Shown here piece after piece: positions 48,554-55,263 of a DNA stretch of 64,000 nucleotides; the stretch's first letter is position 1, and the number at the start of each line of letters is the position of its first letter. The translations under genes were made by a program, and so were the position numbers. The notes below the pieces were generated by a model. The model searched no databases, was not told the origin of the DNA, and saw only the letters and a program-made list of their open reading frames with translations. This DNA comes from a virus: IMG/VR virus record IMGVR_UViG_3300028571_000009; one strand, written 5' to 3'.

Positions 48554-49303
48554 ATGGCCACGAAAGTAGCAAAAAACAAAGCCGAGTTACAGGATGTATT
48601 AGCCGTAACTATGGCAGATAACCTTAATAAAAAATTTAAGGCAAGTGCGCTTCAAGTAGCTTATTTCCTAGACGGAGACGGTGCCGAATCCCCGAGTGAA
48701 ATCAGGGGTTGGGTATCGACAGGATGTACCACATTGGACCTCGCCATTAGTAATAGACCTAATGGCGGGCTTCCTTTCGGACGGATTGTTGAGATTACTG
48801 GATTAGAAGCATCAGGAAAATCATTATTAGCAGCACACGTATTAGCAAACACCCAGAAGATGGGTGGACTAGGAGTGTTCATTGATACTGAGAACGCATC
48901 ATCAACAGAATTCTTATCAGCCATCGGAGCGAATCTAAAGGAAATGCTTTATGTACCGTTAGAGACTGTTGAAGAGATATTCGAAGCTATTGAAAACATT
49001 ATTGAATCGGTGCGTAAGTCGTCAAAAGACCGTCCGGTAACAATTGTAGTAGATTCAGTAGCAGGTGCAAGTACCAAGGTAGAAATGGCCGCTGAATGGG
49101 ATAAGGATGGTTATAATACAACCAAAGCAATTATCTTATCTAAAGCAATGCGTAAGATTACTAACTTAATTGGACGCGAAAAGATTCTGGTAATTTTTAC
49201 CAATCAATTGCGTTCAAGAATGAATGCACCAGCATTTTCTGACCCATGGTGTGTTGACCCGATATCTACTAAGATAACTATTCGGTATAAAGCACAAGTG
49301 TGA
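48554..49303 (+). CDS. uvsX: UvsX/RecA recombinase N-extein plus 17-aa IntN of a split intein
   Basis: GLEASGKS Walker A, IVVDSV, FTNQLR; ends FSDPW|CVDPISTKITIRYKAQV* (IntN starts at 49250). Confidence 0.9.
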   Translation: MATKVAKNKAELQDVLAVTMADNLNKKFKASALQVAYFLDGDGAESPSEIRGWVSTGCTTLDLAISNRPNGGLPFGRIVEITGLEASGKSLLAAHVLANTQKMGGLGVFIDTENASSTEFLSAIGANLKEMLYVPLETVEEIFEAIENIIESVRKSSKDRPVTIVVDSVAGASTKVEMAAEWDKDGYNTTKAIILSKAMRKITNLIGREKILVIFTNQLRSRMNAPAFSDPWCVDPISTKITIRYKAQV

Positions 49304-49337
49304 TGTTTTGACTCCACCGGCTAATATTTATTAGTAT

Positions 49338-50426
49338 ATGACTTATAAACAATTACCGGTGGACTCATTATTAATGGAGTATTTTAATTTCGACATTGAA
49401 TCAAAAGATTCCTCGATTAAAATCAAGGTAAAACTTAAAGATTCTAAAAAGTGTCGAACCGATTTTCCCAAAACACCAAAAGGATTGCCGTACTCCGGGG
49501 TAACTAAGGAATATTTTATCCATTATATCGATGATTATGATACCGCAATTAAAGTATGGACAGCCAGAAAAACGATATGTGCTAAGACTAAATTGATTAA
49601 TTGGTGTATTAATAATCTAGGATTAGATTCTATTACAATAAATAAATTACATACATGCTCAAACGATATATCAACCAAGCTTAGTAATTCACTAAATGCA
49701 CACCATGCAAGCCCCGCAGGTCTTTTGACTAAGGAGAAATTAAAAGCTAGAAGTAAAATATGGGCACCGATAATTGGTCAAATTAATAAGAAAAAATGGG
49801 AAGACCCGGCGTATAGAGAGAAGGTGATGAATATGCGTGAAGATACTGGATTCTACACGGATGTTGTTGAGAAGAATAAAAAATGGATGTCTATACCTGA
49901 GAATAAAGCTAAATTTGTTGAAGCGTGTAATGAACCGGAGCGTAAAAGAAAAATAAGTGAAAGTACATCAAAACGGTGGCATGAATGGATGAAGTATAAT
50001 CCTGAAATAATACGGAGAATAACATACTCTAGCAAAAATAAGCAATACAGTTCTAACGGTATTAAGATGAATAATATCGAATATTTGGTAGCTGAATATC
50101 TAAATGAAATTCATGTTAATTGGATTTCTGAAAAGGTATTTAATTTTGGAAAACACACATACATTCCAGATTTCTACCTACCAGAATTTAATATAGTTAT
50201 TGAATGTTATGGTGATTATTGGCACGCAAACCCTGAAATATTCGATTCAAGTAGAACTATATTCAGGACGCCGGTAACCGTAATTCATGAAAGAAACGAC
50301 CGAAGAAAACATACATTTGAAAGTAACGGATATACGTTTATCCATATATGGGAAAGCGATATTCATAAAAATTTTGAAAATATAAAACAATTAATATGCA
50401 AACAGATTACATTGAAGAAGAAATAA
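49338..50426 (+). mobile_element. Free-standing Vsr-like homing endonuclease splitting the uvsX intein
   Basis: PDFYLPEFNIVIECYGDYWH...HIWESD. Confidence 0.85.
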
Positions 50427-51220
50427 CATTAGCAGAATTTGCATCTCGATTTCTCGGGGTACAAGACCTAGAGTCGCCGGAGGTTTATGATGTCGGTACA
50501 TTAGGTATTGAGGTAAAAACATTAAATTCTAAAGGTGAAGAAATATTCACACCGATAGAAACGTTCGTAGTAAAAGAACCGGTTTCCGAATATTATACGG
50601 ACGGCAAGATTAAGGTCTCAGCATCGCACCGATTTATCGAATCCGGCAAGGAAGTTTTTGCCAAAGACCATACCGATTTCAAGAAAGTATCGGGTCCGTT
50701 AAATATTGTTGATATAGAAGTTCCTGAATATGCTTCGTTCTTGGCTAACGGTCGGTTAAATCATAATACTACAAGTGGTGGAAAGGCGATTGCATTTCAT
50801 GCTAGTGTCCGTTTACGATTAGCTCCGGTAGGAATGATTAAAGAAAAGCGTCATGGTATTGATGAAGTAGTCGGTATTAAAACACAGGCCAAGGTAGTTA
50901 AGAATCGTATGGGACCACCATTAAGAAAGGTGGAGTATCCGATATATTTTGACCGAGGCATCGATGATGATTTCAGCTTACTAGAAATGCTTAAGAAGTA
51001 TGGTATAGTAAACGGTACATCAGGCAATTACAAATATGTAGATGAATCTACAGGTGAAACGATTCCGTTTAAGACAAAGGACTTCCGCAAAACAATTGTT
51101 GATGACCCTAGGATTAAGGATTTAGTTTACGCTGAATTGTGTGATAAATACATTATGTCGTATAACCCGACTGAACTTACCGATGAGATAGAAGTAGAAA
51201 CTGATTTTGCAGCGGATTAA
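50396..51220 (+). CDS. uvsX: 124-aa IntC plus UvsX/RecA C-extein
   Basis: Block B VSASHRF, block F IVDIEV, block G LNHN|T at 50767, then TTSGGKAIAFHASVRL...KNRMGPP. Confidence 0.9.
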   Translation: MQTDYIEEEITLAEFASRFLGVQDLESPEVYDVGTLGIEVKTLNSKGEEIFTPIETFVVKEPVSEYYTDGKIKVSASHRFIESGKEVFAKDHTDFKKVSGPLNIVDIEVPEYASFLANGRLNHNTTSGGKAIAFHASVRLRLAPVGMIKEKRHGIDEVVGIKTQAKVVKNRMGPPLRKVEYPIYFDRGIDDDFSLLEMLKKYGIVNGTSGNYKYVDESTGETIPFKTKDFRKTIVDDPRIKDLVYAELCDKYIMSYNPTELTDEIEVETDFAAD

Positions 51221-51235
51221 ATAAATTAAAAGGTT

Positions 51236-52312
51236 ATGAGTGGTGTACGTGATTATGTTAAATTATTAAGAGAACTTAGACAAGAAAAGGCCGTCGACTC
51301 GGCACCGGATGATAGGGTGCTAATTGTCGACGGCCTTTAGCTCAACAGTTTTATAAGGGTTTTTAGTGCCGTCCCTGTAGTTAATGAAGATGGTGAACAT
51401 ATTGGTGGTGTAACGGGATTCTTAAAGTCAATAGCATTTGTAGTACGTGCGGTACAACCAACTCGATTGGTAATTGTATTTGATGGTAAAGGCGGTTCTG
51501 TTAAGAGACGAGACCTGTATGCTGATTATAAAGCCGGTAGGAAAATTAATACTAAATTCAATCGCCCGGACCATTTAGAAATAAATGTGGAGCAGGAAAT
51601 GATGAATATGCGAAATCAATTATCAAGATTATCTCAGTATCTTGATACCCTTCCTATTACAATATTATCAATTGATAATGTGGAAGCTGATGACATCATT
51701 GCGTATATGACTACCAACGTATTTCATGAATCACGTAAAGTAACTATCATGTCAGATGATAAGGACTTCCTACAATTGATTAATGATAAAGTTTCCGTGT
51801 GGAGACCGGTTACTAAATTAACATATACAGAACAATCTGTGTTTGATAGATTCGGTGTACCGGCATACAATTACATTTTGCTGAAATTATTTATAGGTGA
51901 CTCATCTGATAACATTAAGGGTGTCGACGGTATAGCAGCGAAGACATTATGCAAGTACATTCCGGAAATTACTACCGATAAATTAACCCTGGATGATATC
52001 ATAAAGATTGCGTATGAACGTAATCATGATGCTAAGGTTAAGGTGTATCAAAATATCTTGGATAATGAAAAGTTGCTCCGCCTTAATTACGAGCTTATGC
52101 AATTAGCTGATGTGGACATACCCGGTAATGTAAAAAGTATTACACGTGATATTCTAATGAATCAGGAAATTCCCCCAATTGATAGATTTCAATTTAAGCG
52201 GTTGCTAGCAGAAGACAGAGCCTACAATGTTTTCAAAGACCCTGACGGGTGGCTATTAGATAGTTTCAACTATTTAGCCGGTTATGCAAGTATGCGTAAC
52301 GAGAAGAAATAA
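51236..52312 (+). CDS. RNase H / 5'-3' flap exonuclease with in-frame TAG at codon 35 (candidate recoded gene)
   Basis: ATG 51236, RVLIVDGL*LNSFIRVF...VVFDG-like LVIVFDGKGG, EADDIIAY, SDDKDFLQL, GDSSDNIKGV; the track ORF at 51467 is the same frame and lacks the first catalytic Asp. Confidence 0.85.
51286..51343 (+). promoter_or_regulatory. Coding-region hairpin abutting CTT-TAG-CTC (candidate recoding signal)
   Basis: Perfect 13-bp stem 51286-51298/51326-51338 plus inner 6-bp stem 51301-51306/51316-51321. Confidence 0.7.
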
Positions 52313-52365: not shown

Positions 52366-53154
52366 ATGAGTGATAAATTATCAATATTTGGGCACTCGTT
52401 CCAAATAAAAATTATAGCGGCGTTAATGTCCGATAAAATGTATCTGCAACAGATTGCTGATATTATCGAACCGGCATTTTTCGAATCAGAAGCTAACAAT
52501 TGGATAGTAGATACTATCCTAGAGTACTATAAAGAATACAAGGTACCACCGACATTAGATGTATTTAAAACAAAAGCTCTAGAGATTACCAGAGACGTTA
52601 TGAAAATGGCGATTGTAGATTCATTACGTGAAGTGATGAAATACATGGATGCTGATGACCTAGATTACATTAAGAATGAAACCTTAAAATTCTGCAAAAA
52701 TCAATGCATTAAGAGGGCGATTCTAGATTCGGTAGATGCCTTGAAGAAAGGTGATTACGATGTTATCAAAACGAAAATTGATGCCGCACTTAAAGCAGGT
52801 GAACCGGTCTCAACTGGATATGATTATCTATTAAATGTCAAGCAACGATATAATGAAATCAGCAGAAACTGCATTGCAACTCCATGGCCGGTTATAAATG
52901 ATATAGCAGGTGGCGGCTTTGCAAAAGGTGAATTAGTCATCTTAGTTGCAGGTCCCGGCGGAGGTAAATGCGTAGGACCTAGTACTAGTATTGATATTGA
53001 ATATGAAGAATTAGGAATAGAACTTATTTCTAGTGTAGGTACGAAATTTACATTTTGGATTAATCCATATGATACGTATAATATAGATTCGAATGAATTA
53101 TTAGGTTGGCAGGTTATCAAATTCTTAAAAGATACAACCCCTGATGGTGGGTAA
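52366..53154 (+). CDS. Replicative helicase (gp41/DnaB-like) N-extein plus 61-aa IntN
   Basis: GGFAKGELVILVAGPGGGK|CVGPSTSIDIEY... (IntN starts at 52969). Confidence 0.88.
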   Translation: MSDKLSIFGHSFQIKIIAALMSDKMYLQQIADIIEPAFFESEANNWIVDTILEYYKEYKVPPTLDVFKTKALEITRDVMKMAIVDSLREVMKYMDADDLDYIKNETLKFCKNQCIKRAILDSVDALKKGDYDVIKTKIDAALKAGEPVSTGYDYLLNVKQRYNEISRNCIATPWPVINDIAGGGFAKGELVILVAGPGGGKCVGPSTSIDIEYEELGIELISSVGTKFTFWINPYDTYNIDSNELLGWQVIKFLKDTTPDGG

Positions 53155-53198
53155 TCTATTTTGTATAATTTTTTACATATTTATATTAAAGTAATTGT

Positions 53199-54122
53199 AT
53201 GGCTAGTGTAAAAGATGCATGGATTAAAAAGTATGGAGTAGATGAAGGTTTACGTAAATGGAATGTATTACGACCCAAATTTAATAGTAACGGTACACCG
53301 CCGGCGGGCAAAAACTGCGTTAAATATTGGACTGATTTAGGATACTCTGATGCGGAAGCTATAAAAGAAGTAAGTAGAGTTCAGCGAGCGCGCAGTCCCA
53401 GATGTGTTGAATATTATAATACGAGGGGTATTTTCGACGAACACATGATTGCAGAAAAGATTTCTGAGTTTCAGCGCCGGCAGTGTCCTAGGTGTATAGA
53501 GTATTATATTCATAGAGGAATAGATATCGAAACCGGTAAGCAACTAATCTATAAAATTCAGTCGGAACGTAGTATTAAATCTTCTAGATTTAATGGAAAA
53601 CGTCATAGTGCATTATCAAAAAGTAAAATGGCTACTGCGACCAGTATACTTAAACGTCAAGAAATAGAGCTATTAGGTAAAGAGGAATGGTTAAAACGCA
53701 ATTTTGGTGATAAAAGTAAAAATAGGGGAAGTTGTATATCAAAGGTTGAGCGGACATTACATACATATGTATTAGACATATGTAGTATTGACTTTGATAT
53801 CACACTGAATAAACAAATTCCCGGTACGACATATATCCCGGATATTACTATTGGTAAAAAAATAATCGAATTTAATGGCGACCGGTGGCACGCCAATCCT
53901 AAAATATATTCGGCTGATATGATATTGAATAAACCAGGTGAACAAAGTGTATCGAAATTATGGGAACGTGATTTAATACGCGAATCAGCATTAAAATCGT
54001 TAGGTTACTCGATTTTAATTGTTTGGGAGTATGATTGGAAACATTCACGTGCTGAATGTGAGATGAAAATTAGAAAATTTATATATGATATTGAAGACAC
54101 GGGTAGTAAAGGAAACGATTAA
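53199..54122 (+). mobile_element. Free-standing Vsr-like homing endonuclease splitting the helicase intein
   Basis: YIPDITIGKKIIEFNGDRWH...IVWEYD; N-terminal W..KYG..EG repeats. Confidence 0.85.
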
Positions 54123-55263
54123 AATTGGCGAACTATTTAACAAACTTCACATCGATAACTCGGTGGATGCCCAACATCTACCAGATTTTAATATATGGGT
54201 AAAAACTCCGTACGGTAATAAAAAAATAATTAACCTGTTTAGGACTGCCCTACAAGAAACATGCACGTGTTACTTCGGTAATAATAAAACCTTAGTATGT
54301 TCTTTGAAACATTTATTGAAAACTGAGCGAGGTTGGCTTCCGGTTGAATCAATTTGTTCTGACGATATAATTGAAACGGCCTCCGGAACTACCTATTTAA
54401 AATTCTATAAACGACATACCAAACTAGAATCGTTATATGATATATCTGTAGATACTGTTGGATGTTATTATACAAATAATATAGTATCACATAATTCCAC
54501 AGCTCTTATGAACATAGGTGCACAGGGATTACGAAAGGGTCTGAATGTAGTATACTTTACCTTAGAGTTATACGAGAATTATATTTCACAACGGTATGAT
54601 GCTATTATCACAGGTATAGCAGCTCAGAATCTAAAATATCACGTAGATGAGATTGAAGCACAGCTGGAAAAGTTACCGGGTAGACTTCTATTACAGTATT
54701 ATCCGACAAAAACGGCATCATGTAATACGTTAAGAGCATATCTCAATAATCTAATTGTCAATGGAACCAAACCGGACATGGTTTTGGTAGATTATGCTGA
54801 CTTATTAAAGACCGCGGGTAGAAGCAAGGATTCGCATCACTTAGACCTGGAAAATATCTACGAAGATTTACGTGGATTGGCAGGTGAATATGAAGTACCG
54901 GTGTACACAGCAAGTCAGGCCGGTAGAGCCGCTGCTGACTCAGAAATTATTAGTGGCGAACAAGTAGCCGGCGCATACGCGAAGATTATGATTGGCGACT
55001 TTGTTATATCGTTATCAAGAAAGGTAACAGATAAAATATCAGGTACCGGTAGATGGCATATTATTAAGAATCGGTTCGGCCCGGACGGATTAACGTTGCC
55101 TAGTAAAATAAATATGAGTAACGGCCAAATGCAAATATTCGAAGAAGCTTCTGTGCAGGGTAAAGAAACACAAAAAACTATGGATAACGGGCAAGAAGTG
55201 CTTAGAAAGACGTTAGCAACTAAATTTAGGGAAATTAACCAAAAACCGGGGGACTTGGGATAG
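54085..55263 (+). CDS. 137-aa IntC plus helicase C-extein
   Basis: Block B CSLKHLL, block F LYDISV, block G VSHN|S at 54495; then STALMNIG, YFTLE, VDYADL, TASQ, KNRFG. Confidence 0.88.
   Translation: MILKTRVVKETIKIGELFNKLHIDNSVDAQHLPDFNIWVKTPYGNKKIINLFRTALQETCTCYFGNNKTLVCSLKHLLKTERGWLPVESICSDDIIETASGTTYLKFYKRHTKLESLYDISVDTVGCYYTNNIVSHNSTALMNIGAQGLRKGLNVVYFTLELYENYISQRYDAIITGIAAQNLKYHVDEIEAQLEKLPGRLLLQYYPTKTASCNTLRAYLNNLIVNGTKPDMVLVDYADLLKTAGRSKDSHHLDLENIYEDLRGLAGEYEVPVYTASQAGRAAADSEIISGEQVAGAYAKIMIGDFVISLSRKVTDKISGTGRWHIIKNRFGPDGLTLPSKINMSNGQMQIFEEASVQGKETQKTMDNGQEVLRKTLATKFREINQKPGDLG

Follow-up and report, generated by a model that had tools for sequence, protein, structure and literature searches.

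A probable natural stop-hop in a phage 5′-3′ exonuclease gene, associated with a putative homing-endonuclease cassette

The 5′-3′ exonuclease / flap endonuclease (FEN) gene in the analyzed stretch of lake-phage DNA (64,000 nucleotides, part of a 182-kb contig; hereafter, the window) is interrupted by a TAG codon in its most conserved region. Most probably, translation passes this stop by a programmed +6 hop, in which peptidyl-tRNA-Leu would move from CUU to CUC over the TAG and yield a 356-aa nuclease. We regard the hop as the most likely explanation because the interruption, situated behind a paired hairpin, is kept in dozens of wild phages.

The FEN gene consists of a short upstream part, ORF1, and a long downstream part, ORF2, separated by six bases (Table 1). 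The frame after the TAG is unchanged across the 6-nt insert and remains open to the terminal TAA. The initial annotation of this DNA had proposed the same anatomy (the start codon, 34 codons, CTT-TAG-CTC, and a continuous frame to the end of the gene), and both its coordinates and its sequence proved correct. Enzymes of this family combine an N-terminal resolvase-like nuclease domain with a C-terminal helical domain and carry a D-G-x-N motif that contains the first catalytic Asp. In the window gene, the Pfam domain PF02739 (5_3_exonuc_N) is matched with E = 9.6e-34 over residues 28-207, spanning the TAG, and PF01367 (5_3_exonuc) with E = 1.2e-8, which is below the Pfam cut-off. Residues D32 and N37 are invariant in the alignment of 19 sequences (the window gene and 18 homologs). 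All 18 homologs are intact, with 50-74% identity, and read VDG-LNSFIRV without gaps; the window has two extra codons at this point. Deletion of TAG-CTC in silico regains the consensus V-D-G-L-N-S-F-I-R and a protein of 356 aa. One homolog (P0016, 383 aa) contains a C-terminal extension after the nuclease domain, with a Cys-rich C-x-C...C-x-H segment.

Table 1. Coordinates of the FEN gene, its interruption and hairpin, and the neighboring split genes in the window
Feature	Position	Strand	Description
FEN / 5′-3′ exonuclease gene	51236-52312	+	single frame with one TAG; PF02739 and PF01367; predicted hopped product 356 aa
ORF1	51236-51337	+	ATG to take-off codon, 34 codons; first strand and catalytic Asp of V-D-G
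Hairpin 5′ arm, 13-bp stem	51286-51298	+	variable N-terminal coding region, codons E-K-A-V-D
Inner 6-bp stem-loop, top of hairpin	51301-51321 (51301-06 / 51316-21)	+	RNA fold
Hairpin 3′ arm	51326-51338	+	V-D-G codons, take-off codon, first base of stop
Take-off codon CTT (Leu)	51335-51337	+	CTT in 34/36 distinct cassettes and ~1/49 intact loci
Six-base insert	51338-51343	+	TAG (51338-51340) and landing codon CTC (51341-51343); proposed skipped stretch
ORF2	51344-52312	+	322 codons and TAA (52310-52312); begins at invariant Asn of D-G-x-N; remaining nuclease
recA/uvsX-like gene	48554-51220		two pieces, 48554-49303 and 50396-51220
Endonuclease ORF between recA pieces	49338-50426		Vsr / DUF559-like, free-standing
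dnaB-like helicase gene	52366-55263		two pieces, 52366-53154 and 54085-55263
Endonuclease ORF between dnaB pieces	53199-54122		same superfamily as the ORF at the recA locus

No other in-frame stop in the window divides a long frame as the one at 51338 does, with no restart close by. In the +1 frame, a stop is reached 5 codons after CTT-T, so a +1 shift would be unproductive here. The plus strand of the window is densely coding in the standard code, and TAG terminates 7 of its 74 long ORFs. Genome-wide reassignment of TAG was considered and rejected, because in the window TAG ends other ORFs normally and reading it as a sense codon repairs no other gene. No second FEN homolog is present within the 64-kb window. 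A DNA search against cultured phages yielded no match, and the closest cultured relatives have ~35-42% protein identity. A template-switch origin of the six bases (quasipalindrome correction) was also rejected, since copying of the 5′ arm flank predicts TTTTCT, not TTTAGC, after GGCC.

In the searched protein collection, the window gene appears as a fragment of 281 aa. The interrupted genes P0002 and P0011-P0013 are listed there in N-terminally truncated form (281, 315 aa), with starts at internal TTG or GTG codons. Because gene callers start them in this way, interrupted members are hidden in protein databases; if the hop is real, annotators should note that such genes are being recorded in truncated form.

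The window contig is a metagenome assembly, but the probability that the stop is an artefact of assembly or sequencing, or a recent mutation private to this phage, is negligible. Contigs from three independent lake-water or viral-metagenome runs of 2019-2023 (X3, X5, and X7) span position 51338 with no indel and contain no substitution within 51203-51366; being contigs, they drop rare variants. One strain in these runs is ~3% diverged and yet identical across 51203-51366. Assembly error is excluded because other lake runs, from different studies and years, carry the insert unchanged. Neither an artefact nor a private mutation accounts for the occurrence of the same device in 28 protein clusters from many samples. 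It is also very improbable that the six bases are removed from the RNA by a hairpin-directed micro-intron or editing, or are missing in a part of the DNA population. The hairpin does adjoin the insert, and the flanking CT repeats permit a precise 6-nt slippage loss; however, we know of no mechanism for excising 6 nt from a bacterial or phage mRNA, and the contigs of the three other runs have no indel at the site.

Searches with the protein and with a degenerate DNA pattern over viral and metagenome contigs, after removal of duplicates, revealed 36 distinct cassettes in uncultured phages, forming 28 clusters at 85% protein identity. The stop codon is TAG in 18 cassettes, TGA in 13, and TAA in five. 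The take-off codon is CTT in 34 cassettes, with single cases of CTG and ACC, a count to which several scans with CTT fixed in the search pattern contributed; in unbiased sets CTT is the take-off codon in ~10 of 13 lineages. Intact genes use CTT for the corresponding Leu in ~1 of 49 loci. The landing codon is CTN in 33 of the 36 cassettes (CTG in 10, CTT in nine, CTA in eight, CTC in six), the other three being CGA, AAT, and TTC. Leaving the middle codon free (NNN) in a search of viral contigs added no locus to the 17 obtained with the TRR pattern (TAA, TAG, TGA, TGG), and lost none; the middle codon is a stop in 17 of 17, and no sense codon stands between the Leu codons in these loci. Scans with gap lengths of 3-12 nt produced within FEN genes only 6- and 11-nt gaps among the matches listed.

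The initial annotation had suggested a search of orthologs for a codon, a stop, and a synonymous codon accompanied by a covarying stem. This combination does recur, in 28 clusters and with all three stops. Matching of the take-off and landing codons, another element of that annotation, is usual across the cassettes and is absent from three of the 28 clusters. The unmatched cassettes are CTT-TGA-CGA (L086:5701), ACC-TAA-AAT (L176, minus strand), and CTT-TAG-TTC (L402). All three retain the hairpin, and in L086 and L176 a long, open ORF2 follows. These three may be decaying copies, or full re-pairing may be dispensable.

The stop could also be decoded in frame without a full hop, either by readthrough with a near-cognate or suppressor tRNA, which would give VDG-L-x-L-N with two extra residues, or by a 3-nt slide that adds one Leu, provided that the insertion is tolerated. 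Such in-frame recoding agrees with the preserved frame across the 6-nt insert and with the C after the stop, which is a weak termination context, and the flanking Leu residues could be a structural requirement. Nevertheless, we consider it unlikely. No single suppressor would serve, because all three stops are used interchangeably, and no tRNA genes were found in the 64-kb window or in 22 related loci. An insert of one or two residues at the motif occurs in none of the 18 aligned and ~49 intact homologs, and the failure to see a sense codon between the Leu codons is likewise contrary to in-frame recoding. In addition, known readthrough stimulators are typically located 3′ of the stop, whereas the putative stimulatory structure here is 5′ of it.

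In-frame recoding is further contradicted by two relatives in which the gap changes the frame. In L394, CTT is followed by eight bases starting with TGA and then by CTG-AAT; in L315, it is followed by eight bases starting with TGA and then by CTT-AAC. In both cases the gap is 11 nt, and the nuclease resumes in another frame that continues for >300 codons. Plain readthrough is ruled out in these two relatives, because the downstream ORF is in the other frame, and some re-pairing of the P-site tRNA is therefore required. A full 11-nt hop would give the native motif; alternatively, there may be a +2 shift onto TTG, with three extra residues in the product.

The interruption is preceded by a strong hairpin. 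The perfect 13-bp stem, the inner 6-bp stem, and the location of the 5′ arm in a poorly conserved N-terminal segment were all described in the initial annotation, and each was confirmed. The two 13-nt arms are 100% complementary and constitute the only perfect spaced inverted repeat of at least 13 nt in the 64-kb window. The RNA fold has an energy of -34.2 kcal/mol vs. a mean of -17.0 for shuffled sequences (z = -6.3), and none of 200 shuffles is as stable.

The position of the hairpin is fixed relative to the take-off codon. Wherever the upstream sequence sufficed for scoring (34 cassettes), the 3′ end of the stem is located between -2 and +3 from the first base of this codon. The arms themselves differ in sequence between lineages. 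Ungapped stems are better than composition-matched shuffles (p ≤ 0.014) in 14 of the 18 cassette sequences first tested. The MAFFT alignment A3, with the 17 first-found cassettes, set several 5′ arms out of register; covariation was counted on the alignment A4. In A4, 89.5% of cells pair, compared with 81.4% in shuffles, and both-sided changes are observed in 17 cells, a number reached by none of 500 shuffles. Compensatory types are present in four of nine pairs, at wobble positions of Gly, Asp, and Val codons. In slid controls, 13-56% of cells pair. This count is conservative, because three rows of A4 remain out of register.

A stem at the same site is also found in intact relatives, usually with 7-8 bp, over the Leu and Asn codons. 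The nearest intact relatives of the window have hairpins of -14 to -24 kcal/mol, and the median energy is -25 kcal/mol for interrupted vs. -21 kcal/mol for intact genes. The weaker hairpin over the G-L-N codons is seen, for example, in L193, L195, L196, and L004-L054, and the intact-gene hairpin includes one compensatory switch, from a C/G to a T/A pair alongside CTG to CTA. Two phages in culture, which are more distant, have no hairpin at this place. The hairpin belongs to the clades where the cassette circulates; interrupted genes are not alone in having it, although theirs is stronger. Its presence in intact genes may be due to precise loss of the six bases with the hairpin left behind, or to a second function. 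The view of the hairpin as dedicated and selected is borne out insofar as it covaries and is stronger in interrupted genes, but not as regards exclusivity, given the weaker versions in intact close relatives. The case that the initial annotation had set against its own proposal, all close relatives intact and without a hairpin, is not what the relatives show: the interruption recurs among them, and the nearest intact ones have a hairpin.

Based on these features, the following sequence of events can be proposed. A ribosome with peptidyl-tRNA-Leu on CUU (51335) would meet UAG, in the weak termination context of a following C. The tRNA would unpair, the mRNA would slide by six bases, and the tRNA would re-pair on CUC; decoding would then restart at AAC and produce the native V-D-G-L-N-S-F, while ribosomes that do not hop would terminate and release a 34-aa peptide. 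The 3′ arm of the hairpin, containing the V-D-G codons, would be located just behind the P site, and the hairpin presumably re-forms as the mRNA exits, so as to favor forward and block backward movement. The median fold is -13 kcal/mol with the 3′ boundary of the folded segment at -6, and -24.5 kcal/mol with the boundary at 0. Most of the stem energy comes from the final six bases of the 3′ arm, and therefore a 6-nt slide would close a GC-rich part of the stem behind the ribosome. This stem-closing model is consistent with recent proposals for gene 60, in which mRNA pairing at the exit drives forward bypassing. The device itself would have arrived in a mobile cassette, in which a homing endonuclease gene was joined to a new 5′ segment replacing that of the FEN gene. 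Because it is placed in the most conserved DNA of the gene, the insert probably destroys the endonuclease target site, and the hop would render this protection harmless to the phage. The hop from CUU to CUC put forward in the initial annotation gains from the recurrence, the three stops, the CTT/CTN pattern, the covarying stem, and the 11-nt versions, and it is from these features that we infer the hop itself.

Another explanation is that the insert is an immunity scar of a selfish endonuclease and the gene is inactivated. In this case, only the 34-aa peptide would be made, with no nuclease or with a split enzyme, a host 5′ nuclease would be used instead, and ORF2 would be intact merely because the invasions are recent. 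Indeed, several pairs have 5′ cassettes of much more recent date than their gene bodies, and the interrupted gene L030 is almost identical downstream to its intact relatives; a part of the measured purifying selection therefore predates the invasion. More generally, since the cassettes spread sideways, comparisons of interrupted genes partly measure pre-invasion evolution, and much of the purifying selection between them could have acted before recent cassette invasions.

Inactivation nevertheless appears improbable. All 36 cassettes are followed by an ORF2 without interruption over 306-326 codons or up to the contig end. Between the window and the ~3% diverged strain, there are 16 downstream substitutions, all of them synonymous and none non-synonymous. 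Pairs with old cassettes (upstream dS 0.24-1.0) keep a downstream dN/dS of 0.11-0.23. One such pair is L357 and L345, which differ in the stop and landing codons and have a dS of ~1.0 both upstream and downstream, with a downstream dN/dS of 0.23; another is L071 and L345, with an upstream dS of 0.24, a downstream dS of 0.47, and a downstream dN/dS of 0.115. The old-cassette pairs and the variant strain argue that ORF2 has been under selection while interrupted. In a mere scar, the stop, CTT, CTN, and the covarying stem would not have been retained during divergence of the endonucleases to 27% identity. No start codon is conserved after the stop, and the first ATG past it in the window is 87 codons downstream.

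On a tree built from the downstream protein, at least five changes are needed to explain the interrupted state. An example is provided by the gene L030 (contig L056), which sits on this tree among nearly identical intact genes. Compared with the intact L027 and L037, L056 carries an additional ~1.1 kb between recA and the nuclease gene. The extra DNA contains a 335-aa ORF at L056:1794-2798, a new gene start, a hairpin, and CTT-TAA-CTG; the initial codons of the old gene are stranded behind recA, and identity returns ~25 nt past the stop. The 335-aa ORF has a NUMOD3 motif, weak Vsr / DUF559-like nuclease matches, and matches to phage homing-endonuclease families. In another example, the 5′ cassette of L234 is 96-100% identical to those of L252, L289, and L230 over ~150 nt (from -125 to +25 relative to take-off), and the downstream gene is ~75% identical, with dS above 2. 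The identity of 5′ cassettes reaches 0 differences in 31 codons where the gene bodies have dS above 2. A sharp island of identity ending ~25 nt past the take-off codon and stop is, on these comparisons, a sign of recent lateral transfer.

Of 29 interrupted loci, 12 have an endonuclease gene directly adjoining the FEN start, compared with none of 47 intact loci. Homologs of the cassette endonuclease share 27-60% identity; a full copy is present in L394 and a remnant in L059. In the window, the gap between recA and the FEN start is only 15 nt, and no endonuclease gene is found beside the FEN gene. For the window, the cassette reading therefore rests on relatives. The window, L001, and several other loci appear to have lost the endonuclease and retained the bypass cassette. 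The evidence points to a putative homing-endonuclease cassette whose insert probably shields the target site; nothing supports the purpose assumed in the initial annotation, namely tuning of the nuclease level.

The FEN gene lies between the split recA-like and dnaB-like genes, and the nearby endonuclease ORFs of the window are inside recA and dnaB (Table 1). Both of these genes are in two pieces, with an endonuclease ORF between the pieces. The second recA piece starts with an intein-like segment. The first dnaB piece continues past the P-loop (GPGGGK-C) into non-helicase sequence, which is also intein-like.

In summary, the FEN device is likely to represent translational bypassing carried by a homing-endonuclease cassette, and a natural in-frame stop-hop would be new. 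On balance, we also favor a broader view: these genes would form the first family of natural stop-hops outside the laboratory, in which re-zipping of the hairpin powers the 6-nt hop and homing endonucleases spread a cassette that combines immunity and bypass, independently of T4 gene 60 and in a far shorter form. If the hop is real, the family provides a second, independent, and much simpler natural model of bypassing, with the hairpin, CUU, the stop, and the landing codon all within ~60 nt, and its dozens of natural variants constitute a ready-made mutational series. It would also mean that homing endonucleases have more than once entered an essential motif by exploiting ribosome behavior rather than an intron or intein.

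Bypassing is so far represented by the well-studied T4 gene 60 and its homologs and by yeast mitochondrial inserts. MobA, a homing-endonuclease element, carries the T4 gene 60 bypass (Bonocora 2011, as summarized in bioRxiv 10.1101/2022.08.31.505936). Gene 60 resembles the FEN cassette in several respects: (i) the take-off and landing codons are matched, and a stop directly follows take-off; (ii) the device is located just after a replacement N-terminal segment, and the endonuclease gene overlaps or abuts the gene start; (iii) some genomes lose the endonuclease and keep the bypass cassette; and (iv) protection of the target from cleavage is the role ascribed to the insert, as we propose for the FEN insert. 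The differences are also numerous. The gap is 6 nt in FEN genes (11 nt in L394 and L315) vs. 50 nt in gene 60 (20 nt in one clade), and a FEN gap of 6 or 11 nt is too short for a take-off stem-loop of the gene 60 type inside it. The take-off codon is Leu CUU in FEN and Gly GGA in gene 60, the target genes are FEN and topoisomerase, respectively, and the endonuclease is NUMOD3 / Vsr-like here, whereas MobA belongs to the HNH family. The 5′ stem adjoins the take-off codon in FEN and is 9 nt upstream of it in gene 60. Gene 60 uses a nascent-peptide signal in the exit tunnel; in FEN proteins, the N-terminal Y-x-x-L-L-R/K-x-L of interrupted genes is also present in intact homologs.

The inserts of Magnusiomyces capitatus mitochondria (byps) occupy 81 positions in many genes of one genome, and their bypass is reported to be independent of mRNA context (PMC5009743). 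Similarly to the FEN inserts, byps are short inserts in conserved genes that translation skips, and their codons are sometimes imperfectly matched. However, byps are longer nucleotide blocks in many genes, whereas the FEN insert is confined to one site in one gene family and is accompanied by a conserved hairpin.

A different parallel is provided by the +1 frameshift of the release factor 2 gene (prfB), with a conserved CUU_U, a UGA stop, and then C, where the P-site tRNA-Leu unpairs (PMC5009743). The FEN site similarly has CUU and U in the P site, a stop in the A site followed by C, and a putative stimulator immediately 5′; the TGA cassettes read CTT-TGA-C, exactly as the RF2 site does. In FEN, the putative stimulator is an mRNA hairpin; in RF2, it is Shine-Dalgarno pairing 3 nt upstream. 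No AGGGGG-like element precedes the CTT of the window, which sets it apart from an RF2-type +1 frameshift site, and release-factor feedback is inapplicable to the FEN site, since the stop varies among lineages.

A further parallel is provided by the synthetic stop-hops in Escherichia coli (Weiss et al., 1987; O'Connor et al., 1989), which are described as low-level in the summary of PMC5009743. According to that summary, they share with the FEN site the matched codons around a stop, the decoding of nine bases as one residue, and an unchanged frame. Natural in-frame stop hopping was not known at the time of this 2016 review (PMC5009743), and our full-text literature searches found nothing later on a natural in-frame stop-hop. 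As summarized there, the synthetic stop-hops are engineered, unstimulated, and low-level, whereas the FEN site is natural, conserved, and equipped with a covarying hairpin.
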